Part shown: positions 8,296 to 64,000 of the stretch, in pieces
Layout of the letters: each line of letters starts with the position of its first letter
How positions within the stretch are numbered: position 1 is the stretch's first letter
NCBI GenBank assembly: GCA_008632985.1
Contig: QPGO01000049.1
Coordinates: 124,001-188,000 of the forward strand
Direction of reading: 5' to 3'
Origin: Psammoneis japonica
Lineage: Eukaryota
DNA length: 64,000 nucleotides
Notes under the pieces: model-generated
Seen by the model: the letters and a program-made list of their open reading frames with translations, nothing else
Database searches by the model: none
What the model was told of the DNA's origin: nothing
Program-made: the position numbers and the translations under genes

Positions 8296-10370
8296 TTACA
8301 CTAAGTAAGGAGTTAACATGATGCAGCGCGCAGGGTGTTTTGTAGATTTGATGGAAGAATTGTCTGTACGAGCATGGGTAGAAATGCGGCAAGTCATGTT
8401 GTAGCTCAAGGCTTGAGTCACCCATTTAGGAGGGGGGGGGGGACTGGCACGTGCTGCCAAAGCGATCCTTGGCAAGTTGGCTCCAGACAAAGTCAGCAGA
8501 AGGGAGGAGAGAGCCACAGGAGAAGCAAGGGCATGGAGGAAGGCAGAACAGGAAGCACTGGAGTTGTGAAGGGCAGACAGAGAGGGCAAGGGAGCTGTCA
8601 ACCGTGCAAGCAGAAGGACCAAGGAACTTCAAACTTGTGCTCAAAAGTGGCACACCTCAGCTGGCAAAGGAGGGGGGCAGGCAGACTGGGAAGAGGGCAA
8701 GGAGAAGCTTTGGGTGCGGTGATGTCAACAGCGATGCAGCAATGGTGGAAAGGGGCAGAGAGGGAAGCAAGGGGAGGGAAGGAGACACTGATGTTGGTGG
8801 GATGAAGAAGTGGATGGGGGCAAGAGGTTTGCAGCCTTGCAGCGGGCGTTGTTGGGCAAGCAACACAGCTTGTTGGCAAGGGGCCCTGAAGTTTGGGAGA
8901 TGACAAAAGACAGCACCAGCCACAAAAGCCCTTTTGAGAGTTTGGACTTGTGGTTGCATTGGCAGGAAAATGCATGATCACACCATGGGCATCAAGGGTG
9001 GCATGGCCATGAGGGCTGGGAGAGCTGTTGAGGAAAGAAGAAAGAGTGGGGATGCAGAGCTTGCGCTGGACAGCAATGGCACAGGCATCATCAGAGGCAA
9101 GGCAGGTTGGCAGGAAAGTCAGTGGAAGAGGGAGTGGAGGGCAAGGCTTGCAAGGGGTGAGAGTGGCGAGACAAGGGGGGCAAGACTTGAGCATGGGAGG
9201 GAGCATTGGCAAGGGTGGAGGCACCAGCGCAAGGGTGGCAGAAGGTGGAGAGTTAGAGGCCAGGGCAGAGGCACAGTGGCAGAATGGACCACAAGGTGGA
9301 GATGAGAGCAAGGGTTGTTCCAAGAGGAAAGGGAGAGCTTGGGGCAGCAGGGAAGAGCAGCAGAGTCGCCAGATGGCAGCTGAACTCCACGTGTGGCAAA
9401 GCAGAAGGAGCAGAGGAAGAAGGGCCACAAGGAAGGGAGGGAAGAAGGAAGGGAGTGCTGGGAGGGTCTTGAAGACCAGAGAGCCACCAAGGTGGGCAGG
9501 AAGAGAGGCAGCCACAAGGGGGTGGGGAGGGAGGAGATTGACGTGGCAGGTGACACAGCAAAGAAAGCAATTGGTGATGGAGAGGAGAGCATCTCTGAGC
9601 AGAAGAAGTCCACAGGAGGGGTCAGGGGGGTTGCCAGGGTCAAAGTTGGCTCAGAAATCAGCATCAAGGATGTGAGCAGGGAGGGAGAAGTGGGCAGTGC
9701 TTGAAGAGCTGGGCTTGAGTTTGCTTGTCATGAAGGTGAATGAGGGGTTTCTCCACCTTGGCAGAGAGGCAGAGGACATTTCAGAGAGGAGGGAGCTGGA
9801 GCTGGCACAAAGACCTGAGAGCCCAAAGGCTGGCTGAGAGGAAGTGGGCTGCAGCAGGAGCAGAAGGTTGGGGGCTGTGGGGTGGCAGCGGGTCATTGGC
9901 GGGGTTGAGGTGGCTGGGAGAGGGCATCACAGAGAGGGCCCACCTGCAAAGGAGGGAGAGAATTGAGATGGGCCAGCACCATCAAACACAAGTTGGCACC
10001 AAAACGGACAAAATCCGCGCTCTCTTTCTCTGTCTGTGTCTCAAGCGGGCCAAGCAGCAGGCTTGAGAACTCTGAGTTGCAGCAGCAGCCAAAGCAGCAG
10101 CAACAGAAAATGCAGCAGAGATGACCCACAACACCCTCAGATCTGCAACAAAGAAAAAGCAATGTCCCCTTGCAGGGCTGTGTGGAGCACAGCATGTCGT
10201 TCTTGCCAGCGAGGGCACCACCAAAAGTGGAGCAGGCAGTGCTTCTTCCACCAACTGCTGCTCCTTCTCTCACTGAACATTTCAGCCAGTAGATGCACAT
10301 CCATAAAAGTGCCGAACCAGACTATGTGAACATGGAAAAGCAGTCTTAGGCAGGTGTGGTCGTAGCCCAC
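8296..10370 (-). mobile_element. Degenerate non-LTR retrotransposon (CRE/R2-like, restriction-like endonuclease type), 3' part
   Basis: Across frameshifts the minus strand reads ASLPAHLGG-xGLQDP (post-RT LPxxxGGLG motif, ~9463-9510), IAVQRKLCIP, the Zn knuckle LDAHG-DHAFSCQCNHKSKLS (~8940-9000), and HPLLHPTNISV..IAVDIT (eroded RPAD..DVT endonuclease motif). CpG and TpA are nearly absent. Confidence 0.65.
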
Positions 10371-29400: not shown

Positions 29401-30285
29401 ACCGCCTTCGCTCGCAGGATTTAAAAGGTCGAGAATCTTTTCCAGATAGATCTCTACATAAGAACAGCGGACTGTGTATTCCATTGACGGCGGCGAGTTC
29501 TCCAACAAGGCAAAAATAGCACTAATCGTTCTTGGGATCATTCCGAGATCTTGATCAGCCATTTTTCCACCTGTTCCAGAAGCTGGCCCATTTTCTGGAA
29601 GAGCACCTCTTGGAGGTACTTCTGGTGTGACCCTTTCATCACTATCTTCTTCATCCGTTCGAAGCCGTGACTTTTCCAGTGATCCAATGGTGCCTCCACC
29701 GGGGCCCATCATTGTGTGAGTCTTGCCAGAACCTGTTTGGCCGTACGCCATGACTGCACAATTGTATCCGTCAAAGAGCTGTCGCGCCACGGGAGCAGCA
29801 GTGTGCTCAAATACATCTGCCTGAGAAGCATCCTCATCAAATACCTTAATGAAGAACAAAGAAAGAGAGGTAGAAAGACAAAGGTTGAGAAGGATCAAGC
29901 TACGATGCTCACGAATTTTTCAAAAAAGGAGAGGGAGGAAAAATATCAATTTCAAAATTATGACGTCATGATGAGCAAACATTGTCCAATCAAAACTGTT
30001 CATCAGTCGACAAGCGAAGCGCCAAATGTCCATCACATAAGTATTAATTCGCATCGTACGAACACCTACCCGATCGAACCCAAAATCGTACTCCCCCTCT
30101 AGCGGTGAGTCCACGGTCACAATGTGCGGATCGTCATGAAACTCGACACAGTTCTTGCTTCGCCTGGAGGCTTCCAGCTTGTTCATGGGCCGAAGACGAA
30201 TACATACTCGAACGTTAGCGCTGTTGGAGTGATCCCAATCCTGTACGTCCAAGTCATCGCCGTAGCTCTCGTCATCAGACGCCAT
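26428..30285 (-). CDS. Kinesin heavy chain-like (kinesin-1-related) motor, paralog A; exons 30285-30070, 29844-26428
   Basis: VCIRLRP, FDR|VFDEDA, AYGQTGSGKTHTM, SYVEIYLE, SSRSHAIF and LVDLAGSE motifs, followed by a coiled-coil stalk. Confidence 0.9.
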
Positions 30286-32187: not shown

Positions 32188-34818
32188 CTATTCGTCGAGC
32201 TTACCGATCAGGCGGTCCAAGAAAAAACTCCCGTCCAGATTATCCGCAACAGGACCTTCCTGATTCCCTCCCCCAATGACGGGTAGTACAATTCGACTAG
32301 CTAGCGTCCGATCGTTGATTCTATTTTCGCCGAACTGCCATAAAGGGACAGTCATGCCGTCGACCAATGATCTCAAATTATCGAGTTCCTTCCGAAGTTT
32401 CTTCTCTGACTCCTGACTCGAAAGAAGAATAAGCCCGTTTACTTTCTGCAGATCTACCAACTTCTTCTCAAGAATAATGACTCGCTGTTCTCTGCTTGCC
32501 ATCTTGTTATTGAATGTCTCATTGATTACATGGAGCTCGTTCATCTTCCATACAACAGCCTGTAGGTCGTGATTCTTCCTTTCGAGTTGTTGCTGGAGCA
32601 TCATTGCTTCTTGTGCTAGGTCAACCTGGTCACTGCCACTCATCAATTTCTTCATTGACCCCCAGCCTTGTGATATCATTGTTGCAGACTCTTGTTGTTC
32701 CTTCAGGGCCATTTGCAACTCAAAACATTGCTCCGTAACCCTCAACAGCTCTTTCTGAAGCATTTTCACTTCCATGGCTTCAGAATCCATTTCATCATCA
32801 TCATTCGCGGCATCGTCAGCTTCGATATCTTCCATACTCTCCATATCTTCTTCGTCAATGACACCTTTTTCCAGAAGTAGCATATCAATGTCAATCATCC
32901 CTTTCATTTCCGGTACCCCAGGAACCATGGCAATGAGTTCTTCAATCTTGCCGCTCCCATGAACTCCTCTATGCTTCATTAACCGATTGAAGAACCTCCG
33001 AAACTGCCGCAAGAATATTCCTAGCTCCTTCTCACGAAAGTGATTCATACGAAGATCGTGCTCCAGCTCAGTTTTGCGTTGTGACACCACCTGGATTTCG
33101 TACTCGGCATCAATCAACTCTTGCATCGCTTTCTTGCTTTCCGCGCTGTAAAACTCATTTTTGCTTCGAAGGACAGCCACCTCAGATTGAAGTTCAGTTA
33201 CTGCATTTTCCGCTCTATCCCTGGCCTCATTGGCTTCCTCCACTTCCCTTTCCAGCCGGAGGATCTCCTTTCTGTCAGATTCCATCCTGTCATAAATATC
33301 TCCTTCTTCAACAAGATTTGGTTCCTTGGGGGGTTTGACGGAGTCTTCCTCCTCCTTGTCTGAATCCTCGTCATTTTCTCGTAGAGCTTCGTCAATGGCA
33401 AGCTTGACATGACTGTCTTCAAGAGGATCGGTCTCCGATTCACCCTTACATTCCGCGAGAAGAATCTTTACCAGTGCTTTTAGCTTTCGTTCCTTCTCTG
33501 CCCATTTTCTTTTCGACATTTTGTGCTTTTGCTGATATTTCTCGAGCTTTCTCTCGCATTCATCTGGATTGAACTCTTCATTAACGACAGGCAAATTCCT
33601 GATGCCCCTGCAGACCTTCCCAAAGCGCAACGTATCAACAGTGTCTCCAACATTGTAGCTCGATGGCGACGCTGTCAAAAGCACGGTCGTCAGACAATTT
33701 CCACCAAATGATGGATGGACCAGTCGAGTAAGCTTTGACTGATTCAGCGCTGCTTCCAGAACCTCTGTATCACCTGTCTTTTTTGCCTTGGCTCGTACCA
33801 TACTCGTCATGGCTGCGATGGATTTGTTATTCATCATTCCCTCCACAGACACGGACTGCTGGATTTGTTGCCCATCCGTGCTGGAGGAAGTCATGGATGC
33901 CGCCTCACTGCCCGCAAGATCCAGCATGTGCATTACGCTCTTCTTTCGTTCCCCGGTAATCCTGTTTCTCTGTTCAATCTTCATGATGAAAACAACGTGA
34001 GATCGACTCGAATCCGTGCTCATTTTGATACCGCTCGCGGTCCGAAAGGCATTGCCACGATTCAAGAGAGAAATGACATCGGCCTTGTCAATACAGCACA
34101 ATTCCGAAACACCAACAATCTGTGCTCCTTCTTCCGGCTTGGTCTTGTTTTCCACAATCCGTAGCGCCACGCCACCGACACCGCCGGGAGTCAAGAGATC
34201 CAACACTTTTTCTAGAAAAATCTCCACGTACGAACACCGAACCGTGTATTCGATATTGGGAGAGGACTCGTCCATCAAGTCAAACACTTCTCCCGCCACT
34301 CTTGGAATTACCCCTTCTGCGTCTTGAGGGTCCGGTGGTTCCATCTTATTATTATTGCCAGACTTTGGCGATTCAGCTGCAGCGCTGTCGTCAAAGCCCA
34401 GCATGGTATGAGACTTGCCGCTACCACTTTGACCATAGGCCATTATGGTGCAGTTGATGCCCTGGAGCAAGGAATCTACCATGGGTGCAATAGTTTTTTC
34501 AAACACCTCGACTTGTGTCGCGTCCTCATCAAAGACCTATAGACATTGCAACCCGCATGTATAAGCATGCGCGAACGCAATAATTACACATAATTTATCG
34601 ACTTGTGAACTTACTCGATCAAAACTGAAATCATATTCTCCTTCCAGAGGTGAATTGACTGTCAACGTGCGGGGGTCATCCTCGTGAAGCTCGATGCAGT
34701 TCTTGCTTCTCCTGGACGTTTCAAACTTGTTCATGGGACGGATACGAAGACAGACTTGAATACGCTTCCCTTCTTGTCCTTCTTGCTGTAGCTCGATGCT
34801 GTTTTCGTCCGACGACAT
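32188..34818 (-). CDS. Kinesin heavy chain-like motor, paralog B; exons 34818-34615, 34536-32188
   Basis: Same intron position (FDR|VFDEDA) as paralog A. AYGQSGSGKS, SSRSHVVF and DLAGSE motifs. Shares FLRQFRRF, HDLQAxxWKMNELH and VPLWQFGE with paralog A. Confidence 0.9.
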
Positions 34819-37611: not shown

Positions 37612-37692
37612 GTTTTGCTCGAATAGCAGCATGGCATGTGACTTTTGCTTTTTGGGCAGGACAGGTGATCAACAATGTGGCAACTGCTGGTG

Positions 37693-37993
37693 CGGATTGT
37701 GCATGGCCAGCTTCATCCCAGCACAAGAAAATTGTCATTTGTGCACATTGTGCACATGTCTGTCAACCTGGTGCTCAAACAATTGAGCTGTGAGGGCAAC
37801 ACTGCCACACCAGCTGAAACTCGTCCGCAGCTCTGCTCTTGGCACGGATTGTGTGTGGCCAGCTCCATCCCAGCACAAGAAAATTGTTGTTTGTGCACAT
37901 TTTGCACATGTCCATCAACCTGGTGCTCAAACAAGTGGACTGTGAGGGCAACACTGCCACACCAGCTGAAACTCATCCGCAGCTCTGCTCTTG
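37693..37993. repeat. Tandem direct repeat, 2 copies, period 152 bp
   Basis: 37693-37841 aligns with 37845-37993; several mismatches are CA versus TG or CG versus CA. Confidence 0.9.
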
Positions 37994-39699
37994 AGCGTGC
38001 GTGTGTGCTGGGACGGGGGCACACGCTTCATCTGCCAAGCTGGGGTTGCCTCTGTGTGCTGGTGCACTCCAAAGCATGTGTTTCCTTGCAGAATGGCATG
38101 TGGTTCTCTGATTCCCCACCTGACCTCACCATGGAGGTTGCACCCAGCAGCGCGTGTGATCAACCCCCAGCCAGTGCTGGGGTGTTTGCACACCCAATCC
38201 ATTGATTGTGGCATGGCAAGAGCCATTGTGGTTGGCAAACAACAGAGATGACATGCAAGCAGCATCACAACATCTCAGTCAGTGAAAACAAGTGGTGCCA
38301 CATCTGGGGCACCAGCAATCTGGGTCTGATCACCTGCCACACTTTGGGCATTCCTTGGCTGCAATCCCAGATTGTTGTGAACTCACAAGTTGATTCTTCC
38401 TTGCAATGTCAGATCAGAACCAACCAAATTTGCAAGAGCTCCTTGATTGCAAATTGCACCCCACTTTGAAGGACAAGTGTTCTTGCCCACAATTTTGACC
38501 TTTCAACCCTTTTCAATGTTTGCTGTTTCTCGATCCAGCATCTTTGCCTGCAGCAACATTGTTTTAAAAGCAAATGTTGCAACTGCCACTTGCTCTTGTC
38601 TGACAATCACCCTGCAGCTTGCCTCTTTGTTTTTGTGGCCATGTTTTCTGGATTTTGTTGTTTGCAGCAATTTGCATTCACACACCAGCTTGCTTTGTCA
38701 CCTTGGCTGCAACTGCTTTTGTGCCATTGCTGGCAGCCGCTGGCTGCAAGGGCAGCCCATTGGTGTGGCCTGCCCGTCCTCTCTCTGCTTCTTTTTCTCC
38801 TCTCTCTTGCATTTCTTCTTGGCCTCCTTGGACAAGTTCACCTTCTCTCTCCTTTGTTCCTTGAGCCATGCACCAAAAGAACCTTCACTCTTCTCTTGGT
38901 CTTTCTTTGCTCATTTGCACAGTTTGTTGTGCTTTGTGATCCCCTTCTTGCTCTTCTGCTGTCAGCTTTCTGTGCCTCGCAATGTCATCATCCAACCACC
39001 TTGTCACAGCAGTTGTGGTGTGCCAGCACCTCTGATGATGTGGCAAGTCACTCTTGGAGCAAATTGGTCATGCTTCTGCCAAACTGCCCTTGGGCTGCCA
39101 CAGTTGGTGCCACCATTTCCAAGAACCATGTGCATGTGTGGTCTTTGGTCATCAGCCCTGCCCTTGATCAAATCTTTGCAATCAGCCAGTGACCCCTCCA
39201 AAGCAGCAGCTGCACGGACAAAAGCAATGGAGTTCACACCCCATCCTGTTGGACAGTCCAAACCATGGCTGTCAAACACCTGTGTTGTGTTGCTTGCCTG
39301 TCATCCTCCTCCTTGCATTGTCCTGCATGTTGCTCCTTTTGCAGTTCAGTTTTTTCCTGAACACCTCTTTGTGTGCATTCCAGAATGCTTCCATCACCAA
39401 TGCCGTGCTCTTTGGCTCCTGCAGAACCATTTCATGCACTCTCCTTCCACTGCGAGTTCTTTGATGAAGGCCATGAACTTGCAACACAGCCACACACTTT
39501 CGTTGACAACCTCAGTCAACATGGACCTTGTCAAATTCTCATTGACCACTGGAGCTTGATCCGTTGCACCATGATGTCCCTCCACAGGGAGTCACAACAC
39601 AACTTGAGTCCCTCCTCACAAACTGGAGCTGGCTCAATTCCCTGTGCTCATTCATTTGCACATTGTGTTGAACAATCCCACTTTCACAGGGCTCATTGG

Positions 39700-40600
39700 G
39701 GCTGCAAAGCAAAGCAAATCAAAGTGGCTCAGCCCAACTTGCCAGTGCAACTGTTGATCTTTGTCCTGCCCTCTTCAACCCCTGACTTGCCACTTGACGT
39801 GGCACTCTCACCAACCTGCACTGTCACTCCTGTGACAACCATCTCCTCCATCTTCTTTCCTGCTCCAACAGGTGGCACTTGTGTTGCACTGTTTGCTGCA
39901 TCTCACCCAGTTTGTGACACAAGAAGTCACAAAATGAGTGCACTTTGCAAAACAGTGACTGCTGCTGGCTTGATGGATGCAGAATTCCATGCTGCTGGCA
40001 CCACTGTAAAGTTGGTTCCATGTGTCTCCATTCCATTCTTTGGGAGCTTGGGTTCTCTCAAGACTTGCCAGCCCTGTTGCATGTTGACAATGAATTGGCT
40101 GTCAAGATCATCAACAATTGCATCCTGACTCAACGCTCTTGCCACATTGACATCCAGTGGTTTGCTCCCCAGGACTGGAAGGATGCCAGCCACATTGTCA
40201 CATGACACATCCCTGGCATTGTCAACCCAAGCAATGACATCACCAAGGCTCTTGGGCAGGCTGATGCTCTGCGCCCACCACGCCCATCAGATGATGGGAC
40301 ACCTCCATTGATTTGTTGTTGCTGGCATCTGTTGAATTGCCCCACATCATTTTGTGATGTCTGGCTCCTTTCCAGAGTCATCCAGTTTGTTCTGTCCCTT
40401 TTGCATGAGACTGTCTTCCCTTTCTTCATGTTTTGTGATCTGCGTGGTCTTGTTTCTTGACATGTTAGATCAGGGGAGGGTGTCAGCCTGCTCTGCACAG
40501 GGCACATGGTCAGACTGTGCACAGATGATGGTCAGACTCTTTCAGATGGACAAGATGATCTCCTTGGCTTGTCACTCTTGCCCTCAAGTGCTTCAAATGT
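39700..40600 (+). mobile_element. Ty1/Copia LTR-retrotransposon relic: RNase H, polypurine tract, start of 3' LTR
   Basis: AEFHAA..KLV..LHSILWELGFSQ..LHVDN..QRSCHIDIQWFAPQDWKD..HIPGIVNPSNDITKALG (eroded Copia RNase H). AGGGGAGGG at 40472-40480 is directly followed by TGTCAG. Outer limits are approximate. Confidence 0.85.
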
Positions 40601-42249
40601 TTCATGAGTGCAGATTTGTCAAACCAGCCCCATCTTGGATTTGAAAATGAGAAGTTGCCCAACTGCAATTCAAAAGATCTTGATGGTGATGATGACACCC
40701 AGATTGTTGGTGCCCCAGATGCATTTTTTCATGGCACTGCAGCAGCCAGGTTGGCCTGCACAAAAAGCTGGCGCAAGTGTGCCCAGTCATTTCAGCCAGT
40801 TTGGCAAAAAAAAAACTGGTGCCAGCACCAGCATTCTGCACTCACAGCCAACCCCACCCCTGTGCAAGGGCTGCCATGGGATGCAGGTGGCTGTGGTGTG
40901 TGATGACATCATCACATGCATTGAGTTGCACACATTCACATCTGCACTTGTGAACACATGCCATCAAGCAAATGACTCCCATCCCACAGCACCCCAATTT
41001 TCTGAATGCCAAACACAGAGGGGGCAGGAGTTGACCATTTTTAAGCCATTCTCACACCACCCAAACAACACGCGTCACATCAGCTCCACCACCATGATGA
41101 CATCACCTCCATCATCCCCAACACCCACTGACAATGCCACAAATGTTGTTGTTGCCTCTGCCAAGCCCGTTGTGGAAGACAATTCTGTCACTCAATTTGT
41201 CGTGACCCAACCACAGATGCACTGCAATCTGGAAGGTGTCAATTTTTTCTCCTGCTGATCCAGCACCTGTCACACAATCTCAAGGCCGCAATTGGTCCAT
41301 CTGGTCATTGCATTGCCTGAACAAATTTCTTCCAAGTGTTTGCATGGGGAGGTCATGTTTGGTGATGATGGGCAGGGGCTTGAGTGTAGAAGCTTGCAAC
41401 TTTGCACTGCACAAAAGAAACAAAAGACAAAGTGTGAGGTCAAGGTTAAACTCACACCCTGCACCATGCTCTCTTTTCTCTGTGACCCCATTGTCAATGA
41501 GTCCATTTCTTTGGAGTCTTTCTTGCCCACTGACACACTCCCTCCCTTGTCAAGCAGGCCACACATCATTTTGATGTGAAGCAACAACCTTGACAGAAAC
41601 CAATTGATGAAAATGAAAAGAAGTCATGACAGGTGCGTTGCACAAAGACAAGCTAAAAAATGTGAAGAAGAAGTTGGCAAGGAAGGTGTGGCAGATGCAG
41701 AAAGCAGAGTGACAGAAGTGGAGGTTGTCATTGCAGTTGGCAAATGTCGAGTTGGCAAGATGTGCAAGGCAGCAGCAAATCCACTTGGATTCAACAATGT
41801 GTTTGAGGTGGGAAAGGAGAAAATGAGAAAGAAGAACCTGCCACTGACAAGATTGTGGGCTGGGGAACAAGAGGAATGGCCAAGACAATGTTTGAAGCTG
41901 CCATTGTTTCACAGCACGGAAGGACAAGAGGACAATGCACACCTTGTGATTGCATTTGATGTGTCAGATGCAACTCTAAACTGGCAGAATGCTCAACTCT
42001 AAACCATTCCACAAGGTGCTTTGTTGCTCAGTTTGCACAGGTTCCCAAAAAGCACTGTGATTTGTGGCAAAGTCTGTTGCACCTGGTGCAGCAAGAGCAA
42101 GGGACAACACAGCCACAGGTGCATCTGAGTTGCCCTTGGAAATCTTGCAAACAAGAACATCCGTGGCAATGAGAGCCACAGCCATTTGCTTTGCTGCCTT
42201 TGGTTTGACCTTTGCCACATTGCTGCTAAAAAGCAAAGCAGGAGCTCTC

Positions 42250-43330
42250 AGAAAGGATTTGATGGCATCAACAACCATGTCAACTAAGTGAGCATTCTGG
42301 ATGAGGCAATCACCATGCATGAAAAGGTCAAACAAAATGGAAGCAACACCATTGCAATTCAAAGCTGGGTGCAGCAGGAGGTGGTTGCAGTGGCAATGGG
42401 TGCAAGCATTGCATGGCAGCAGGCTGGAAGGGTCGATGCTTTCAGCAAAGGCAGGGCTGGAAAGCAGAACCTTGAAGGATGCTTGGTGACAGCAAGTCAG
42501 GAATGAGAGAAGGCATGGAACTTGCATCAAATCTGTCATTTCAAATTCCCTCACTTCAGGAGAAATGTTGGTCGCTGCAGTGCACCGGACATGCAAATGA
42601 ACAAATGCACATGTGTTTCCAGCAAAACACACATTTGCCAGAAGCAGCTTGGAAAGGGAACTCCCTGGCCCATGCCAATCAAGCCAGGTGGACCGGTTTC
42701 CCTGAAATGTCTCAATTTTTGTCTCCTCCTGTTGGAGTGAACAATGCATTTGAAAGAAGAACCATTGGCCATTGGCAATGCCAACAGCTGGTTTGAAACC
42801 ATTGTAAAAGGAAGGTTGCTGCAGGTGACATGGAATGACACATGCCTGTGCCTCTTGTCAAATGGCAATGGCCAACATTGTGGGGGAATCTTGAACCCAA
42901 TCAAAGCCATTCATTGATGAAACAATCTGGGCAGTGCAAGTTGTGGTCATGAGCAGGAAGGGCAGCAAAACAATGAATTTTGTCAAGAGCAACAAGCCGC
43001 AGCAAACCCTGGTGTGCAAAAGAGAGAAGAAATTGCAGTGGCTCATCAATTGGAAACAGCCAACTGAGGGGAAGAAAACATGTGCCGCACCCTGTCAAAA
43101 AAAACATTCCATGTGAGGATTGTGATGTTTTGATGTCTCATCCAAATGAAATGAGGTGACTGGGCCATGTTGTTGTTGTCATGTGGCTTGTTGTGACACA
43201 TTGTTTTGCGGCACTGATTGGAACCCAGGGACAAAAGTGGGATGACCGCAAGGATTGTGCCATGGTGGCAGACACTGACAATGTCTTGGACAAGGGATTT
43301 GCCACCTTCTGTGGGTCTGACTGGTGACTG
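42250..43330 (-). pseudogene. Degenerate RecQ-like SF2 helicase
   Basis: Motif I VRPTEGGKSL, Ia AVIPLLSLGSNQ, II LRLVALDKIH (DExH), III LLMTTTCT, and a downstream Cys cluster CCHQ..PCNACTHC, in correct order with frameshifts and deletions. Confidence 0.7.
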
Positions 43331-45610
43331 TGGCTGGGCTTGTTGGTTTTTCATTCATGAAAACAGTTTGGAGCCAACCTCAACCTTCCAACTGCAAGGT
43401 TGCTTGCCAAAGACACTGACAGAGATGTCAATGAATGTTTGGGAGAATGGTGTGGGCAGCTTTGTGCAGGTTGGGTGTGTGGAAGCATCTGTGTCAGGTG
43501 CTGCAGCTGATGAAAAAAGTGCAAGTTGTTGCCGTGCAGCAGCACTGCCAACAATGCACACTCAACAGTGGCAAAACTCACATTGGGGCAACAGGCATTG
43601 CATCATGGGAAGGCGTTGATGATGCATTGCTCAACATCATCATGGTGGACTGTTGTTGACACATGTTTTTTGTGTGTCATGTGGCAGGTGAAAAACGGTC
43701 AACTCCCACCCTCTGTGTTTGCCATCCAGGGAATTGGAGGAGAGCATGGATCAGGATTTCCCTTGGTGCCATGAGCACTTGTGTGCAAATGCCAAATTTC
43801 GTTAAATGACAGCATGTAAAAAATGCATCACATCTCAATTGCATCACCATGCCATCACATCCACACTCTTCCCTTGCACAGGGGTGAGCCAGCCTCTTTG
43901 CACAAACAAATGTGGTTTTTGTGCTGCACCGTCTGGGCTCCACAAAGTGCCGCACATCTTTCAATCCACCATGTGGCACTTTGTGCCAGTGACACCTGCA
44001 GTTGTCACCATCATTCTCAAAAAGAAAATGCAAGGGGCCAAACCTTTTGCAAAGGTGGCAACATGAAGCAATGACAGGGATGAGCTGCAAGGCTTGCCCA
44101 AGCAAGCCAGATTTGTCAGCTGAGGAACTGCTGCTTGCAAAGAAGTTGAGGAAAATCAACAACATTGTTGGCAGTTGGCCCAGCTGGCACTGTCAAAAAT
44201 GACAACAGAGAGAGGGAGGACAAGGCTGTGGTCAGAGATCTGGGAAATGCAGAGGGTCGTCTCTCAAAGCATGTGATTTGTTTGCAAAAGCAAGTTGGTG
44301 GTGCGGAGGGCAAATGACCCAGGTGTTTCCTTTTTCTTCTTCTTCTTCTTCAAATCACCCCAACCACAGTGTGGCCACTGCTTTTCACCAAGGTGTTTTA
44401 CAGAACAGGAGTGTTTTGCAGATTCTGCCCATCTGGATTGAAAGCAGGTTCAAGGGCCCTGCCCAATGCACAAGATTGGTTCAGCATGGCTGCTGGAGCT
44501 CTGCTGCTTGTGCTCAAACCTTTTGCTCTTGGCATCTGCACCTTTTGTGATTGCAGCTGTCTACCCCCATTGGGTTGGTCATCCAACCAGGAATTTGCCC
44601 TCCTGTCTTGATGCCCACATCCAAAAGAACTGAGTTGGGGCTGGTTTGCCTTGAGCATTGGCTTGGCTGGCACAAAAGACACAACTCAAAGCTTCAGCAT
44701 CTCCTGCCTTTGGCTTCTCACTCAAGTTGATCAATGCAAGGTTTTGAGCAATGACTTGGAATGTGGACAGAGTGTGTGTTGAGTGGCAAAAGAGATGACA
44801 CCCAGCCACTGTTTTGAGTGCATTCTGAGGCAATCCAGTTGCTCCCATCAGCAGCACTGTTGCAAAAGAAAGTGCCCACACCTCCTTCTTTGTTTCTGTG
44901 CTTGAGACTGCAATTCCTGGAGTCTTGAGAAAGGGTTAGATTAAGACTCCACATTTTGTGCCCTCCTCTGAGAATGTCCAATTGTTCTCCATGTCACACC
45001 CATCAGGCATGTGACTCAGGAGAGAGCGCAAACTGACCAAATGGCAACTCAGGTGCCAGTGTGTCAACCAGTTGTCAGGAACCTTGTGGTGCATTCTTCT
45101 GAAATGCTGGACTTGAGCCATGTCTTCAGCCAATGTTGAGCAGATGATGCCACAAGGCTTGCAATGGAGCACAACATAAAAACAAAGCTGGTGCTGCAAT
45201 TTTGCACTGGACAAACAAAAAGAACACAGGGACACCAGCACCCAGGATGGCAACATTGCACAGATCATTGGCCAGATCATCCTTGTGTGAACCATTGCAA
45301 CCACAACTGCCACATCCCACATGAAGTCAGGGAGTGCAGCAAATGACTCACACCTGATGAGGTGGAGGTGGGTGGACAGTGTGACAAGCTGCTGGTGCTT
45401 GGTCATGTGAATCTCCCACCAAGATGTGGCATGAGGCGAATCTGTGTGAGACCCATGTGCAGTGCTGGGAGTTTTCCTCATGCATGAGACCAGCACCAGT
45501 TGTCTGCTGCATGCACAGTCAGTTGTTGAGCACTGGGGTGGTGCTCCACCAAATTAAATGTTGACCTGGCCTCTGGCCTTGTTTGACATGTGTGATGTCA
45601 GGTTGCTGAC

Positions 45611-45783
45611 ACCGCCCCTTGACCTCTGTCTCTTTCTCAGCTGCTCTGCAGATCTTTGATGCCATCTGAGATTCTGGACACATTGTGCTGCACTCTCTGG
45701 GCACATTTCCTCAGCTGCTCTGCAGGTCTTTGTTGCCCATCTGAGATTCCAAGCACATTGTGCTGCCCTCTCTGGGCACATTT
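45611..45783 (-). repeat. ~74-bp tandem repeat (45636-45783) next to a possible second PPT/LTR junction
   Basis: Two copies of CTCAGCTGCTCTGCAG..CTCTGGGCACATTT. The minus strand reads AAGGGGCGG-TGTCAG at 45620-45606, like the junction at 40472. The LTR interpretation is tentative. Confidence 0.55.
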
Positions 45784-48700
45784 CCAGAGTGTGAGCCTTC
45801 TGAATGTCCCATTGGAGTTTTTGGGTGGTGCCACCAAGTGCAAGAATGTCCCACTTTCTTGGACTGGAAATGGAGGATTCAAGAAGAGTCAATCAAGAAG
45901 AGTGCACTTTGTCCTCATTGAGCTCAGCGTCCAAGCCAAACACAGAGTGGCAACACTGATGCCTCTTTGTGGGTGGGTGGTTGGAGGAGTTGGAGCGGCA
46001 CCAACTGGAAAATGTGCAAAGAGAGTCATTCACACAGGCTCTCTGCTCTGAGACATCAGACAGACATTTGGCTCTGCATGACCTCTGTGCATGGCTGGTT
46101 TTTGGTGGTTGAATCTGATGCTTTCTCTTTGGTGCTGGAGTTTCAAAGAGTTTTGTTTGATGGAGCCCACCCTGTCTCACTGCAGATTGTTTGGCCCTCT
46201 TGGTGGGGGGTTGGGCAGCAGGTGACAGGAGCCACCTGCATTGTTTGGCACAGTGCCCTCCCCCCATTTCTTTCAAAAAGCAAGTGATGTGATGGCAAAG
46301 GCTCTTTCATGTTTCTTTTCCTCGGTGGCATTCCATCCATTGGCAGGTGGAGACAACCAGTCAATCAACTGGAGGATCAAGACACTGTCTCTCACAGAAA
46401 AACAGAAAAATTGAGTGTGCCAGTTGACAGGCACTGCATCTCTCTCATCTTCTTCCATGTTCTTGTGAAGGACCAGCAGGATTTGTGCAGAACTTCTGTT
46501 TCTCTTTTCTCACCACTGCACTGTGATGCAGCAGGGCATGGCACAGATCTCTCCCTCTTTACCCCAAAGTCTTTCATGCTTGTTGTGGACAATGCTCTTT
46601 TCAGTGGCTGCCACCTGCAACATTTGTGACTGACTCCTGGGTGGATTGCAGCAAAATGTCCAACAAGGGTCAGTGGTGCATGCCCCAGCAGAGCCACACT
46701 GTGGTGTGAAATGGATGCACTCCCCTTTGCTTGTTTGGAGCTGAGTTTGCAGAAATCTCTGGGCTGTGATGATGGGGAGCTTCCAGCACTTGCAAAATTT
46801 TGGCATTCAGGTTGCTGCTGATGTTGTCTCACTTCACTTTTGGGTGGTGCTGGGTGGTGCCCATCACCCCACCACTGCCACCAAGATGTGGGCACAGGTG
46901 TGGCTCATGCCAACTCTTCTGGCATCCTCTCCAGGGTGCACTCCACCAACCCTGCTGTGTGGGACAATGCCCTTGAGGTTTGGCAGACCTTTGCATCCAT
47001 GCCAGTGAAGGGCTTGACTGCAAACTTGTTTCTCAGACCAAATGGACAAAGGCAAAGCTTGCTCTCAACTGGGCCACAGAGTGTTCTTCATGACAAATGA
47101 CAAACATTTGTCTCTTGTTGAGTTCAGGTCCTGCACTGGCTTCATTTGCTGTGCAGCTCTCTGACTCATGATCACTTGCCACTGCAACATGTGACAAGAG
47201 GCTTTTGTGCAAAGCAGGCAACTGATGGGCCATCAAGTGGCAAAGTGATGCCCAAAAACCAGCGGCATGCTCTGCACTGCTGCTGCTTGACCAGCTGCAG
47301 TTGTGGTGGTTGGACACAGATTTTTGCATGGCTTCTCCAGCATGTTGTTGGGCTCCAGGGGGGGGGGGGGGCAACACATGTGATGCTCCTTTGTGATGAC
47401 CCAAAACTTCTGTTCAAGGTGTCTCACCTGCATTGGCTGCACATGCACTGGAAGAGATGGCTGCAGCATGGCTGCTGAAGTGGCACACTGACATCCTTCA
47501 AGGTGTTCTCTCCTTGATCCCAAGGCTGTTGACACCCTTGTGGTTTTGACATTTTGTTCAGTTGGCCAACATTTGTTTTTGCATTGCCCAATTTTGTGCA
47601 GGTGTGTGCTTCTGAGTTGGTGTGCATTTCCCTCTGTTGCACCACAAGCCCTGGGAGTGGAGACAAGCTCCACTTCAGTGGTGCTGTTTTTGCACAAATG
47701 TGTCAAAGTGCACAAAGCCTGGCTGGTGCACATTGGGGGTGAGAACTTTTGTGACAAATGCAGCAGTTTCCTGAGGAAGAAAGTCCAAATGATGGGAGAG
47801 ACATGGCGTGTGGGGTGGCATGGAAAACTTGACACATCACATTGCTGTGAACAAGCAAGCAGCAGTTTGGAGCACTGTTTTGTTGTTTGTGTGGGAGCAA
47901 CTTTGCATGGATGGCTTGCACATTGTGCAAAGAATGTGCAAGTCTCCTTGCTTTGTGCAATTGCAGGATCCACTCACAGCAGCAGTTTGGACCCATTGCT
48001 TTAAATTCAAAGATCACTTTCAGCACACCAAAGAAAGCTCCTCCAGCTCAATCTGTTTTTGCAGGCACAACAGCTCAGTGTGAGTGCAACAAATTTCAAT
48101 GAATTTTTTTTTGCAGGCACCTGCATGAAATTCAGCAAGCCATTGGATTGGTTGTGCGCTGTTCTGGGAGACTTGTGGATGCTCTTTGGCATTGTGTGGC
48201 TCAGCCAGGTTTTCTTTCTGAGGTGCTGCTGCATGGCTGCAGGGTGCTGAGGTCCTGGAGTGGGCTGTCAGCTGGGTCAATCACATTGGGGCACAGGTGG
48301 CATGGAACTTGTGGTTCTTGTGGGTCCCATGAGCAGTGTCTGCTCCAAATGCTTGCAAATGCTGTGTGTGTGTTCTTGAGGTTGTTGTCTGCACTGCAAT
48401 TGTGGGCAGGGTCCTGCTTGGGCAATTTGGGCTTGCAGCTGGTGTTGAGCAGGAAGAGTGGGGTGCACACCACTGGAATTGGGGTTGCTGCCAGCTTGGT
48501 TGGATGTCAGCAGATCTGATCCATTGGGGAAAAAAGCAGGTGCTGTGATTGATGTCAGTGTAGACTTTGCAAGGGCACCGTGACCTGGGGCTGGAGCATT
48601 GACCCCCCCCCCCCTTGATTGTGCCCAGGTGTGTCCAGTGCAAGTTTTTTTGCCATTGTGTTGGCATGAGTGGTGGAGGCTTGTGATCTGAAGTCATTGT

Positions 48701-50769
48701 GTGGCATGCATCTGGCCTCCACTTCAATCACAGATGTGCTTCTGATCATTTTAATGCGCCAGTGCAGTGGAGCCCAAAAGGGGCCCTGGCCACCCCTTTG
48801 CAAGTGGAAAACATGGTTTTGATGTCATGCTGATGCAATGTTCATGTCATGATTTTTTGTGTGTTGTCACATCTCTTAATTTTGCATTTGCACACAAATG
48901 CCAATGAGGATGGGAGTTTTACTTAACAACATGCTGTGCACACACATTTGCAAGAATGTGAATGTGTCCGACTCAATGGATGTGATGATGTCATCACCCA
49001 CACCCACCCACATCCCACAGGACCACTTGCAAAGGGGTGGGCCCTGGCATTCTTGCTGGCAACCAAGAAGTTTCCAGCTTGGGTTGAAGTGTCAGTGTGC
49101 ACACTCAAATGTTTGGTGCTGGGGCCCCAGGTTTGCAGAACAAACAACAAGGCAAAGAGCCATTGTTTGCACCTCAAGGATTGCCAGGAACTGAGTTGAA
49201 TGTCTTGGCAATGTGTCGTTGCTCAGCAATCATCACCAAGGGCTCATGACTTGGCTGCAAATCAACTTGTTTTCTTTGACTGGAGATGTTTTTGCTCCTT
49301 TTTTTGCCAAATGCTAGCCAAGCACACACTCTTGCCTCTCTTGCACTTTGCAGCACTTTGTTTTGAGAGATCAAGAGGGGGTCATTTGGAAACTGCAATT
49401 TCAGGGTTTGAGCTGTTGCTGAGATTTCCTCAACAACATTTGCAACATTTGTTGGGGGGAGGGGTGACAGGGGGTTGAACCAAAAGTTGTGGTTTTTGCA
49501 ATTGCCATGACTTTTGTTCGTGTGAAACATTTGCATGCAGCACTTCTCTTGATTTTGCTGTGATGCGCCATCTCATCAAAAATTGAATCTTCAAAGCTCC
49601 ACAAAGACCCTCTGCAAATTCAAAAGCCTTTGTTTGCAGCTGACTTCTTTTCTGCTGACACCCGCCCACCCTGTTGAAGAAACAAGGGCATCACAACACC
49701 CAGTTGCTTGCAGCACTTTGACCCCTTCCTGCTGACAGCTCCCAAAAGTTTGCCCAACAATGCAGAAGCCCTGTGGACTTGCACTGGTTCCTGCTCTCAA
49801 AGTCTGTCTGTTTGGAGCACAGGTTTTTTGTGCCATTCTTGTCCCAGCACATCTCACAAACTGCAGGCTTTTGCACGTGATTTCATGTGTGGAACTCATG
49901 CCATGGAAACAAGGTCAAATCTTGCACAACAAGCCAGCGGCATTTTTGGATTTGTTGCGTGCACAATGTGCCAGATTCTTGCATGCAGACACAGCAATGT
50001 GGAAGGCTGGTGGACAAACAAACACACTGGGAACCACCATGAAATTCCACACAATTGGGCAGCCTTTTGAGAGCCACAAGCTTTGGCTCACACCTCTTGG
50101 CACACTGGGCAACTCCTCTGCTCTTTTTGTTGCTGCTGCTGTGTGGGCAGGACCAACAGGAACTTGTGACCACAGGTTGCTTGCCAAGCAGGCCTGGCTT
50201 CCAGCTGCTCAAAGTGCAAAATCCTGACTTTGATGCACCAACACAACTGAGTCAAAAAGAGGCTCCAGCACACCAGCACTGGTGGTGGCCAAATTTCTGG
50301 TCTGGATTTGTTGTCTGACACAGGGGAGGCACTGCACCCACTGCCACATGTTGCAGAGAGTTGTTGCCAGCATGTGCTCAAAATGTTCAGAAACTCCTGA
50401 GATTCAGAAGTGAGGTAAAAAGCCAGAGGTGCACACAGGTGGATGGTGCTCAAATTGGACACAACTGTTGCACATTTGCAGGCCATTGACACTCCAGCTG
50501 CTCAAAAAAACATCTGGGCTCAACAAGTTGTTCAAAGTCAACTCTGCATCATTCACCAACAAAGTGCAAAGTGCAGCTTGTCTTCAGATGAAATCATCAC
50601 ATGTTTGATGTGTTCTTGAATGTGCTCAATGTGACAATTGCAGCACCATGGTGCTGCACTCTTGGCTCAGTCAAACTCAGCACCAGGCTGCTCATCATGA
50701 GTGTTGGCAAAAGGTCATTGTGACAAGAGATGCTGACCTTGATGAGACAATGCAGTCAAATCCAAGAAA

Positions 50770-51335
50770 ATGGCCCAGCATTGTTGGTGGCAGAGTTTCT
50801 GGCTTGGGTTCATTGGCTGGTGACAGGAGTCCATGCTGCCACATTCAGTGGAAAAAGTGTCAGCAGTGTGTGCTTTTGCATGTTCAGCAGTCTCCAAGAT
50901 TTGTGAAAGTGAGACAAGCAAAGACAGTGTCAGACAGTCTCTGAGATTTGTGAAAGTGAGATGAAGACAGCACCAGACACATGTGCACACAGACAGAAGG
51001 TGTGATGGTGCTCAAATTGGCTGCAATGGCCATTGCACCTTTGCCATGTTTGACATTCATGACTGACAAAATCTGCATTCAGTGGATTGTTCAAAATCAC
51101 TTTCAAGTCATGTGCCAACTCAGCACAACACATGTTGCAGAAGCTGTCTCCGGGCACAAAATCACTGACACAGCAAAGTTGAGAGAGATCCCAGCTTTGT
51201 GATGCAACAACATGGTCAAGTCTAAAAGGGGCCCCATCATCATTGGTGGCAAAGAATCTGGCTTGGGTTTGTTGGCTGGCTGGAGGCCACACCACCACAT
51301 TCAGCGGGGAAATGTCAGTGTGTGTTTTTGTGCTC
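50770..51335. repeat. Diverged direct repeat of ~110 bp (~50770-50880 and ~51228-51335)
   Basis: Shared TTGGTGGCA..TCTGGCTTGGGTT..TTGGCTGG..CCACATTCAG..TGTCAG, with reciprocal CA/TG differences. Confidence 0.65.
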
Positions 51336-51933
51336 TTGGCACTCAGTTTCTGAGATTTGCTTGTGTGGGCATCACACATGATCCACAACCATCATCAGTG
51401 TGCTTCATGATGTCTCACTTGCAGACACAGTTAGATGTTTTGCACAACTCATCTGGGTTTTTATAAAAATGGGTGAGCTCACACCAAAATGAACCTCTGC
51501 TCATTAGAGCGCATCCTCGAAACATTGCAAGGAAGGGGCCATTTGCGCGCCACTCCTTGACAAGAAGGTGACTCATTGAAGGCAATTTTTTGAAATCAAA
51601 TGTCACACTTTTGTGGAGCCAATGCACTTGTTGTGGGCCCCGCACTTTGATCTGGGGGCTCCGGAAAATCTTGGAAAATTTTGTTGTGCGCACGACACAG
51701 TGGCTGAAAAATTGTTGGGACAGAGCTGCAAAGTGTGTGAGAGAGATGGCGCTGCACATGAGACATGCTCTTTGGTTGGCTTCATGAGTTGGCCATTGTT
51801 TGGCATTGGGCACTGAAGTGGATTTGCTGTTTCTCCTCTTTTGCTGTCTGTCTGGCTCTCAGCCAGCAGCACTGTGCTTCTCTTTTGCACCAGAAGATCT
51901 TCAACCCTGTTTTTGCCAGGCTTTTGATTCTCC

Positions 51934-51935
<2 letters not shown>

Positions 51936-51966
<31 letters not shown>

Positions 51967-52130
51967 NNNNNNNNNNNNNNNNNNNNNNNNNNNNNNNNNN
52001 NNNNNNNNNNNNNNNNNNNNNNNNNNNNNNNNNNNNNNNNNNNNNNNNNNNNNNNNNNNNNNNNNNNNNNNNNNNNNNNNNNNNNNNNNNNNNNNNNNNN
52101 NNNNNNNNNNNNNNNNNNNNNNGGGGGGGG
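51936..52130. other. (GT)n microsatellite, 156-N assembly gap and poly-G
   Basis: GT repeat 51936-51966, N 51967-52122, G run from 52123. Confidence 0.95.
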
Positions 52131-52553
52131 TTCAGCAGAGAGGGTCATTCCTGCATGGATGGCAGATCACTCTCACAGTGTGAGTGCTTTTCAAAAGTTA
52201 GACCTGCCAGAATTGTTTCAGCAATCTTGGATTTGTGGGAGTGAGCGAAATGAAGAGCAGCCAGACGTGCACACAGACATCTGTTTATGTCCCTGGTTGA
52301 AATCGGAAACTACAACCGTTACACGTTTGTTGATTGTTGACACAGCATGACCGCAGAAATCTGCATTCAACGCATTTATTCAAAATCAATTTGAAATTGT
52401 ACCAGTATATATATATATATATACGTCGTATGACGATGAAACCGTTACACGTTTGTCGTGTTGTTGAAGCTCATCTCAGCAAATTCAACTCCAATCGTCG
52501 CATCGGTTCTAGATAGTCATTTATACATTATAAATCAATTAATATGAATATTG

Positions 52554-61349: not shown

Positions 61350-64000
61350 CTTGGGGCCTATGTCAAGAGGCACCGCGGAACAACTCCCTACCCTGTCCTC
61401 AACTTTTCTGAGAACTAGGACATTAAATATGCCCTTCGACATTCGGTTTGGGTCATCTCCCGAAATAATTGGTGCTTATGTCGCGAGGCGCCCACTGTGC
61501 AAAATGATGTTGTTGCCATCTGGTCGGAAGGCAACGCGCATTGTCACGGACGCATTTTGAACGCGCCATTGATTCCAATGTGTGAATGGTTGATTGTTGT
61601 TTAGCTCACAGCTTTTCATTTCATTCTCAGTTCTGGCTGATGACTCCAACTTGAAAGAGAACAGTGGTTGCCATGGTCGTCATGGCATCATCATGAAAAA
61701 TGCTGCAAGGAGCCCGACTTCCACCTTGTCTTGTCATGACAGCGGCGCTGCATCAGCGCCACTGCATCATTCAAGCACAGAGATGCAGCATGGCACTTGC
61801 CACTTCTGCTTGTGCCTTGCCCCTTCTCCTGCCACAAGATGCACAAAAGACACAACTGACCCCAACAAGCAACATTGTGGTCAATCTTTTGGGCTGATGA
61901 GAGAGCTTTCTTTGCGCAAGGCAAGCTCCTCATCAAGGAGTGCCAGCCCCAATGGCGAGTTGAGGACACCAAGCTAGTTCAAGATCCCCCCTGCCATCAA
62001 AATTGTTTGCCAACACAACCTGGCTCAACCTTGCCATTTTGCCTCTCTTTTCTTGCAAATCTCTCAATGTGAAGACATGGAAGAGTGCACCCCTCTGCTG
62101 CACTGGCACAGCACCATGTGCTGCTGCCTGGCATTAGCAGCAGTTTCTCCAAGGCCCATGCCAGCTGCATGACAACCTCAACAATGCCATGCCAGTGCTC
62201 CAAGATCTGCTTCCAGCAATGAGATTGATGGTTTCACAAAAACAGAGACTGCTCCACCCAAGCAAGCATTGTCACACCCCATGTTGCACAACAAGCTGGC
62301 TGCAAACTCTAAAAAGATGCCAAGCAGTGCTGCCATCTTTCTGCCACTGGTTGGGCAGTGTGCAAATGCCATCTCTTGTCAAATCAGGGTTGCAAAGCCA
62401 GCTAAGAAGCCATGTGACTCTCTGGGGCACCTTTGTTGTTGGTCACATTTTTGGCAGAGGGGGGGGGGGGGGGGGGGGGCACCACAGGGCTCAGGGCAAG
62501 CACAGAGCCAAAATGATTAAACACATGTGAGACCACAAGTCCAGACACTTTGTGAGCCACACCATGATGCAAAAAAATGAGCAGAAGTCCAAGCAATTTG
62601 CAACAGACAAGCCATGGTCACCTCACATTAGGCCAAGTGCATTTGCTGGATTCAGCAAAATGGCTCTGGGTCTGCCACCAGTGGAGCCAGTGAAAAAGCT
62701 GCTCACCAGAAAAAGGCAAGAGTGGCATGGATGAACCAAAAATGAAATTGTGCAGTGTTGAGCTTCTTTCAGAGCAAGGCAAGACCATCAAAAAGAGTCT
62801 CATGAGTGTGGTGTGTGCATTGCACATCACATCAGAGAGCCTCTTCTTGGCAGCCTTGCTGCAACAAAAAGCCTTTTCAGTGTGAGCTGCATTTTGACAC
62901 ACAGAAGCTTGCCACAAGGAGAGTGCACCCTGTTGGCTGAGCAAATGGAATGATGTCATCACAACACCAGTGCAATGCCAGACAATGTGTGAGAGGACCA
63001 TCAAGAAGATGTGGCCTGTCTCATCTCTGCTGGGAAAGAAGGAGACCAGCAGTTTGTCACATGAACATTCCCACCTGTCACAGCAAAAAGCCCTGATGCT
63101 GAGACTGGTGCAACAAAAACAAAGATGAATCTTGTTTTTCATTGTGAAATCTTCACAACAGGAGTGGCATGACATCTTTTGACAACAACGACATCTCAAC
63201 AGCAAGATTGGTGCACCCAAGGAAGACCCTGCCATGTGTGCCAGTGCACTTTGAAGAGCTCTGTTTGCAACAAAGAAGCAGAGGACAAGGAGTGGGAACC
63301 ACACAAAACCTTGTGATGCTTTGAGGCTTTCCTCTGAGCAAAGCACAAAAGTGGTGCACAGATGTGGAGGAGATTCTCAACTTCATCTTTTGAGTCCCAC
63401 ATGCGCAACACATTTGCAGAGGTGTTTCAAACATCATGTGCTGGCATGGCACACTTCTGCCCACTGACAATGTTCAGAACATCTTGAAGAATCTGGGAAG
63501 CAGCATGGCATTTTGTTGGCCAGGCGGCAGCTGTGGTCAGGAAGCAGGAGGCAGAGAGCACAACTGCTGAGGAACAGCTTGCAACAACTGCCATGAGACC
63601 TGAGTGCAGAAGATGTTGAGAAAGTGCATGATGGCTGCTGAAAAAGAAAAAAAATGATCAGCAGCAAAAGTTTGCCAAGCTCTCAAAGAGATTTGTTGAG
63701 CTCTTAAAAAGACAAAAAAGGAAGAAACAACAGAAAAGGCAACATGGGAAAAAGAGCAACAAGCTGGATGCCACATCAACCAACTGTTGGAGCAAGTTAG
63801 ATGAGGGTGTTAGAGAACCCGGAAATAGTTGAAGTCCATGGATGTTTTGGCTCCTGACGTGGCCGGTCTGATGACCATGCATTCTTTGTCATCGCACTGT
63901 CATCCCTGAAATGAAGTGTTCTCACTCTTTAGAGTGAATCATCTGGTGTGTCAACTGTTGTCATCGGTGATGGGAAGCATCTGTTAAAAAAACCAAATCC
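61350..64000. mobile_element. Unclassified degenerate repeat/transposon block, CpG- and TpA-depleted from ~61600; runs off the window
   Basis: Same dinucleotide signature as the other blocks, G tract at ~62459-62479, no intact ORF. No family motif recognised. Confidence 0.55.

Follow-up and report, generated by a model that had tools for sequence, protein, structure and literature searches.

In the chlorarachniophyte Bigelowiella natans, TpA hypermutation of integrated viruses has been measured in mutation-accumulation lines, and an ADAT2-like adenine deaminase has been proposed as the responsible enzyme (Mettrop et al., bioRxiv 10.64898/2026.01.13.699255). Here we describe a similar footprint in the diatom Psammoneis japonica, in a window of 64,000 nucleotides (contig QPGO01000049.1 of assembly GCA_008632985.1, positions 124,001 to 188,000 of the forward strand; all coordinates below are those of the window), where three blocks have lost nearly all of their TpA, and much of their CpG, to TpG and CpA. 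The two cases are alike in that TpA alone is hit by the process, becoming TpG or CpA according to strand, and in that foreign or repeat DNA is affected beside normal genes; the TpA-poor, TG/CA-rich clusters of B. natans carry reverse-transcriptase and transposase domains, and the process there, as here, runs counter to the usual GC-to-AT bias. The two cases differ in that the host there is a chlorarachniophyte and here a diatom, that is, a stramenopile; that the nucleocytoplasmic large DNA virus region there has a TA observed/expected ratio (O/E) of 0.45, whereas the loss here is near saturation (TA O/E 0.01–0.05); that the changes there are almost exclusively A:T to G:C, whereas CpG loss accompanies them here; and that a de novo rate about 1000-fold above that of the remaining genome was measured there, with 231 de novo TpA mutations in lines of which just some showed the process, whereas here the footprint alone is known. 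The main text of the preprint contains nothing on CpG, flanking bases, trinucleotides or sequence context, and its supplements may hold flank data.

Other described systems share parts of this footprint. Fungal repeat-induced point mutation (RIP) likewise amounts to a saturating, in-place transition of repeats with sharp borders, destroyed reading frames and a dinucleotide-specific signature, but there C becomes T, for the most part at CpA, so that TpA arises and GC content falls, whereas here TpA is destroyed and GC content is unchanged. With TpA nearly absent and base composition unaltered, the footprint is not that of fungal-type RIP. Diatoms methylate transposons at CpG, and decay of 5-methylcytosine would account for the CpG half of the pattern (CpG to TpG or CpA), but it cannot remove TpA, whose absence extends beyond the zone that is poor in CpG. 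The ADAR and APOBEC enzymes that act on animal retroelements produce deaminase-type clusters of transitions with neighbour-base preferences; they work on RNA or single-stranded cDNA and leave one-strand signatures, whereas here both strands are changed equally, and margins outside the elements are included. Symmetric N6-methyladenine at ApT also involves a self-complementary two-base AT step, but ApT is not depleted here beyond the loss of ATA and TAT (5.41% of dinucleotides versus 6.31%); a preliminary description of this DNA had already remarked that ApT is abundant. A full-text literature search returned no report of TpA loss in diatom repeats. The case adds a new host lineage, a purge that has reached saturation, evidence that it is separate from CpG decay, and a flank rule refining the palindromic VTAB target ([ACG]TA[CGT]) put forward in the preliminary description.

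Expected counts of tetramers and run lengths were taken from the flanking, mostly coding DNA of the window, where GC content is 47%, TA O/E is about 0.5, CG O/E is about 1.0 and the longest TpA-free stretch is 192 bases. In three blocks only, TA O/E falls to 0.01–0.08 and CG O/E to 0.02–0.13, and TG and CA each rise to an O/E of 1.7–2.1; TpA loss amounts to 95–99%, beside a twofold gain of TG and CA. The main TpA-purged zone (37625..51966) contains 34 TpA in 14.3 kb, where about 540 would be expected. Its left edge is abrupt, with 32 TpA between 37000 and 37624 and none between 37625 and 38153. Within it, the CpG-purged core (38154..51509) stops about 0.5 kb short of the TpA-free zone at either end: in the margins at 37625–38153 and 51510–51966 there is no TpA at all, and 10 and 9 CpG, respectively, remain. 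The second block (8428..10289), which is purine-rich on the + strand, retains a single TpA (TTAG at 9254) and 21 CpG, so that TpA loss is near-complete there and CpG loss merely partial. The third block (61976..63797) retains 6 TpA and 3 CpG, and TA-poor sequence continues from it to the end of the window.

The preliminary description had counted roughly 30–35 surviving TpA between 38500 and 52200, all but about four of them with a 5′ T or a 3′ A. We counted 35, of which 34 lie within 38565–51505; the 35th, at 52199, lies past a gap of N in normal DNA. A 5′ T or a 3′ A is present at 31 of the 35, and the exceptions are the four that had been named: GTAG at 41387..41388, CTAC at 44562, GTAG at 48561 and CTAG at 49315. 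The survivors quoted as examples were found at 38565, 40466, 41654, 42805 and 45177, and the other two blocks are alike in this respect, the one TpA of the second block being a TTAG and all six in the third being TTA or TAA. Across the three blocks 38 of 42 TpA are T/A-flanked; among the genes on either side the figure is 639 of 1700 (Fisher p 2.4e-12). A baseline of transposon type, drawn from 30 little-mutated loci of copia retrotransposons (an element class represented in the main block, see below), gave matching flank proportions, with 38.1% of 3406 TpA T/A-flanked (binomial p 5e-12); the flank bias is therefore no artefact of coding flanks. Depletion differs among the 16 NTAN tetramers (Monte Carlo p below 5e-5), so the uniform depletion that the preliminary description had named as a refuting outcome is not seen.

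Measured against the flanking DNA, retention was 1% for VTAB sites (4 observed, 400 expected), 12% for TpA with one T/A flank (26 observed, 212 expected, i.e. about 88% lost) and 41% for TTAA (12 observed, 29 expected). Since one-flank and TTAA sites are also largely lost, a flanking T/A slows the loss and leaves the site within the target; in support of the earlier proposal, no other single flank protects as strongly as a 5′ T or a 3′ A. Grouped by purine (R) and pyrimidine (Y), the sites kept over those expected were 0/214 for RTAY, 13/361 for mixed flanks and 28/105 for YTAR. The VTAB class is thus itself heterogeneous (RTAY 0/214 versus 4/211 for other VTAB), and sites with one T/A flank vary as well: CTAA/TTAG was kept at about 35% (15 versus 45 expected), GTAA/TTAC at 7% and ATAA/TTAT at 3.5%. 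In the four-parameter model that we fitted, the 3′ base governs how fast the A of each strand is hit, and the rates of the two strands add up to that of the site. By the Akaike information criterion (AIC) this per-strand model (−83.3) fitted better than three classes (−64.2), two-class VTAB (−54.9) or uniform loss (−6.7), and the fitted cumulative hits by 3′ base were 3.48 for T, 2.44 for C, 1.15 for G and 0.32 for A. The skew of the products agrees with it, T-YR-C gaining TTG (+5.3 per kb) over TCA (+1.6 per kb) and G-YR-A gaining GCA rather than GTG, in figures that include a contribution from CpG decay. A per-strand 3′-neighbour rule, T≥C>G>>A, therefore fits better than a symmetric VTAB site: the earlier proposal of a context-dependent loss stands, and its symmetric target is not supported in the form proposed. 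In the background, NTAN usage is opposite to this rule, RTAY being commonest and YTAR rarest, so the genic TA O/E of 0.5 is no evidence for the purge process in genes and has another cause.

The length of the adjoining A/T tract, taken as the longer of the A run that follows the T and the T run that precedes the A, has a further effect. Retention was 0.9% at a run of 1, 7% at 2, 15% at 3, 30% at 4 and 100% at 5 or more (10 observed, 10.0 expected). The share of A runs preceded by T was 0.007 in the block versus 0.233 in the background at length 1, and 0.148 versus 0.158 at length 5; A-run densities are equal in block and background, and the runs have not expanded. The TpA heading an A run of at least 5 at 41654..41661 exemplifies these sites, which are kept at background density; the others in the three blocks, some of them T runs on the + strand, lie at 41042, 42227, 43817, 45177, 50416, 51462, 51464, 62310 and 63705. 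Survivors like GTAAAAA need both strands shielded, so the effect of long tracts is a duplex-level one. Another word, TTAGA, is retained as well; it occurs at 40465..40469 and at 9253, 44936, 51431, 51504, 63797, 63810 and 63929, and as TCTAA at 41975, 41998, 51221 and 62308; counted per strand, 9 were observed versus 14.2 expected. The word resembles neither an A tract nor the end of an element, and comparison of the flanks of its copies revealed no homology. Because these flanks do not align, the recurring GTTAGAT was rejected as a set of homologous long terminal repeat (LTR) ends.

Base composition is the same inside the blocks as outside (A 0.258 versus 0.261), and the dinucleotides balance: TA is reduced by 3.52% and CG by 5.01% (sum 8.53%), and TG and CA together are raised by 8.86%. 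TG and CA are symmetric, at 1773 and 1621 in the block and at 246 and 248 on the sense strand of a copia remnant. A TpA loss this specific and context-dependent, with base composition unchanged, is not general GC drift, as the preliminary description had argued. The remnant, at 39918..40310 on the + strand, is a Ty1/copia polyprotein C-terminal tail in which one TGA was read through with X. A search with it gave 472 matches (best E 1.7e-21), and RVT_2, gag_pre-integrs and SH3_retrovirus were present in five of the six matches that were scanned, including all five long ones. For the putative copia element at 38.2–40.3 kb the C-terminal tail alone is recognisable, and the polyprotein domains are seen in its long relatives. 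Compared with these relatives the tail has changes of the Arg-to-Cys type, fitting CpG decay. Frames in the blocks are broken: a Pfam search of their 133 stop-to-stop open reading frames (ORFs) gave just two sub-threshold chance matches, and a search of six read-through frames gave none. No LTR pair was found around the copia remnant by repeat search or self-blastn, which returned just short, diverged pairs; the copies are too decayed or truncated for LTRs to be seen.

The direction of change was examined in environmental relatives of this element. A metagenome scan with the copia tail yielded 80 related loci, with TA O/E ranging from 0.12 to 0.91 and TG/CA O/E from 1.65 in the most TA-poor locus to about 1.0–1.2 in the TA-richest. 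One strongly purged locus, L070, was compared over 1.14 kb (L070:1-1134) with the majority of 52 relatives. It carries 118 substitutions, including 42 A>G and 27 T>C. Ancestral TpA numbered 49: 38 had been lost to TG (22), CA (14) or CG (2), 9 were kept, and 2 had changed otherwise. At the same time 48 of its 53 ancestral CpG were kept, and no new TpA had arisen from about 145 ancestral TG/CA. TpA and CpG loss are independent across loci (0.80 and 0.04 in L070, 0.59 and 0.43 in L075). L070 and L044 represent a pure TpA-purge state, with 64–80% of ancestral TpA turned into TG/CA and 96–98% of CpG intact. We pooled 9 of the 80 loci, those with a TpA loss of at least 0.42, leaving out L079 (a near-duplicate of L075) and L062 and L046 (few sites). 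Together these kept 181 of 426 ancestral TpA; because the copies share ancestry and are partly coding, the counts are descriptive. Per-strand hits by 3′ base were 97/267 for T, 75/216 for C, 38/168 for A and 39/201 for G, or 172/483 for a 3′ pyrimidine versus 77/369 for a 3′ purine, which roughly halves the per-strand rate. The most resistant contexts were CTAG, CTAA/TTAG, CTAC/GTAG and TTAA (0.62–0.67 kept), and the most sensitive were ATAT, GTAC and ATAC/GTAT (0.22–0.29 kept). An alignment of the whole family was discarded as a rate estimate, its cells being non-independent and some contexts resting on 1–2 columns. Three things are confirmed by the relatives: which way the change runs, that it does not depend on CpG decay, and that a 3′ pyrimidine is preferred over a purine.

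That relatives lose TpA with CpG intact separates the TpA process from CpG decay. As the two losses are separable both in space and in the relatives, we interpret the loss of CpG as a separate process of an ordinary kind, in which CpG would pass to TpG or CpA, presumably through cytosine methylation of repeats; the other process would turn TpA into TpG or CpA (A:T to G:C), faster and with a slightly wider reach. In the core CpG is kept at about 8% of expectation, mostly at G/C flanks. Among the CpG survivors at 38154–51509 and 61957–63819, retention was 0.195 for GCGC and 0.17 for CCGC/GCGG versus 0.04 for TCGA and 0.02 for CCGA/TCGG, a preference for G/C flanks that mirrors that of the TpA survivors for A/T flanks.

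Taken together, we consider it probable that dead repeats have been rewritten in place by CpG decay plus a TpA-directed process, that most of the TpA still present are old sites whose context is slow, and that the three blocks are silenced, dead repeat DNA of which at least one piece is a Ty1/copia retrotransposon. The composition, the flank dependence, the balance of dinucleotides lost and gained, the way in which the relatives have changed and the lack of coupling to CpG loss are all direct observations; the agent is proposed from them. In the proposed mechanism, the A in 5′-T[A]N-3′ would be converted on each strand at a rate set mainly by its 3′ neighbour (relative rates of 1.0 for T, about 0.7 for C, about 0.33 for G and about 0.09 for A). 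A site survives solely if both strands are slow, which yields YTAR survivors and wipes out RTAY; A/T tracts of at least 4–5 would shield both strands. The agent may be an enzyme acting on DNA strand by strand, most likely an adenine deaminase whose product, inosine, is read as G, and which chromatin or small RNA would direct to foreign or repeated DNA. TadA acts on a tRNA that has U-A-C, which fits a T[A]Y preference.

Several other explanations were weighed against this one. A duplex-reading enzyme or symmetric modification that recognises the palindrome [ACG]TA[CGT], with a 5′ T on either strand removing the target, would explain why a 5′ T or 3′ A stands beside 37 of the 41 survivors and why the two-class model is far better than uniform loss, and the protection of both strands by long A/T tracts is a duplex-level effect of the sort it implies. 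It is nevertheless unlikely, given that TTA/TAA sites are themselves mostly lost and that rates vary widely within its classes, from CTAA/TTAG to ATAA/TTAT and from RTAY to other VTAB; moreover, the per-strand model is ahead by 28 AIC units, the products are strand-skewed, and in the nine polarised relatives VTAB (113/271) and T/A-flanked sites (60/142) were kept alike, at 0.42 each. The survivors might instead be mostly new TpA that arose after the purge, by C-to-T change at CpA/TpG (e.g. methylated CAA) or by changes in A/T runs. TG/CA substrates are very abundant, the purge is old enough for back-mutation, and at 43817 and 41042 the TA is matched by a CA in a paralogous copy elsewhere in the window. 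We think this improbable, however: by our own arithmetic, uniform creation from the NCAN/NTGN of the block predicts about 45% T/A-flanked sites, not 90%, and about 1% at A runs of at least 5, not 10/41. New TpA in the relatives are not flank-biased (24/59 T/A-flanked), and the two most purged copies have 21 old TpA versus 0 new. Nor do the runs offer a source, since their density equals background and slippage cannot place a T before an A run, which disposes of the slippage origin that the preliminary description had raised as a possible objection; even at steady state, the rate of destruction must fall with tract length.

A lesion on the thymine side would lead to the same duplex, the T of TpA being modified or damaged (e.g. 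5-hydroxymethyluracil-like) and mis-repaired or mis-copied to C, with the flank rule read as R[T]A; survival cannot separate the base 3′ of A from the base 5′ of T. Thymine is a 5-methylpyrimidine like 5-methylcytosine, both of the self-complementary YpR steps are lost here, and dinoflagellates carry 5-hydroxymethyluracil preferentially at TpA and TpC. We know of no high-yield route from a 5-hydroxymethyluracil:A pair to C:G, though, and we hold this explanation to be unlikely. The B. natans authors favour adenine deamination (bioRxiv 10.64898/2026.01.13.699255). Editing of retrotransposon RNA from A to I by an ADAR-like enzyme, fixed by reverse transcription so that elements arrived already edited, would suit a block that is in part retrotransposon, and the preference of ADAR for a 5′ U, as given in that preprint (bioRxiv 10.64898/2026.01.13.699255), matches TpA. 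The equal TG and CA counts on the copia sense strand and the T>C changes in L070 beside A>G argue against it, both strands having been converted alike; the purge also crosses elements, a tandem repeat and non-coding margins with one sharp border. ADAR prefers a 3′ G, which is disfavoured in the window, and we regard RNA editing as very improbable. Equally little credence is due to the idea that no mutation took place and that the blocks are foreign DNA inherently avoiding TA and CG, or that modified bases misled the assembly or the base calling. Some viruses do avoid certain dinucleotides to an extreme degree, and modified bases can produce systematic long-read errors. Against this, the frames are broken throughout with no Pfam match, the copia tail shows decay of the Arg-to-Cys type, the mass balance is exact and the relatives form a graded, polarised series. 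Contigs of a public run also cover the main block as single copy, at a flank-like word depth of about 60x with 0–4 differences per piece, parts of it at extra depth from paralogues (multi-copy), which indicates that the block sequence is real, although the assembly itself may derive from that run.

A number of points weigh against in-place rewriting by a strand-wise adenine process with old survivors. Its direction inside the window is inferred from composition and from the environmental relatives, and the expected counts rest on the flanking, mostly coding DNA, although the copia baseline gives matching flank proportions. CTAG was observed once versus 3.0 fitted by the per-strand model, and CTAC is oddly resistant in the relatives. 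In the nine pooled loci, stronger protection by a 3′ A than by a 3′ G was not seen (0.23 versus 0.19 hit), and no A-run effect was seen either, with 0.42, 0.44, 0.46 and 0.40 kept for runs of 1, 2, 3 and 4 or more (36 sites at runs of at least 3). Survivors of the GTAAAAA and ATAAAAA types show that the 3′-neighbour term alone is insufficient and that a duplex-level A-tract effect is needed. The two tract sites at which a paralogue has CA are unpolarised, so those two could be new. As a thymine-side lesion gives an identical duplex outcome, the deaminase stays a candidate.

The purge is limited to three sharp-bordered blocks among genes for kinesins, Hsp70, EF-G and a subtilase, and the neighbouring genes are spared. 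The long ORFs of the window also include one for a protein kinase. The EF-G is 88–92% identical to named proteins of Thalassiosira, Cyclotella, Pseudo-nitzschia, Nitzschia and Phaeodactylum, and the window is diatom nuclear DNA; a protein-atlas search with a kinesin pointed to eukaryotes and no further. The right border of the main block is concealed by an assembly gap of 156 N (51967..52122); a (TG)n microsatellite at 51940–51966 adjoins this gap, and the border is unassembled. On the left, the TpA-free margin that still holds CpG contains a tandem pair of a 152-bp unit, 91% alike (37688..37991). A run of about 12 G (8432–8443) lies exactly at the left border of the second block, whose GC skew reaches 0.45. 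Two kinesin-motor genes on the − strand, at 26431–29919 and 32191–34536, lie about 5 kb apart, and their DNA aligns at 72–81% (repeat families D1 and D4), which suggests a tandem duplication that included the downstream region.

Blocks free of TA and CG lose the TAA and TAG stops, which leads to long spurious ORFs, and neither Pfam nor repeat annotation picks them up; as a result they distort the calling of genes and repeats in algal genomes. The separation of TpA from CpG loss shows two independent silencing-linked mutators on one DNA, and the flank rule (T≥C>G>>A with A-tract immunity) is a concrete enzyme signature against which candidate deaminases can be tested. Tentatively, we propose that diatoms possess a TpA-editing DNA defence, probably strand-wise adenine deamination on silenced chromatin, which would prefer T[A]Y, act poorly on T[A]A, leave A tracts immune, extend about 0.5 kb beyond the methylated core and be independent of CpG methylation. 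It may be the same system as in the rhizarian Bigelowiella, in which case A-to-I DNA editing of invading DNA would be an old and widespread counterpart of fungal RIP in the clade of stramenopiles, alveolates and rhizarians (SAR). A TpA-erasing defence has so far been reported once, in the 2026 preprint on a chlorarachniophyte; the diatom footprint and the graded environmental copia loci suggest that it is widespread among major marine algae.

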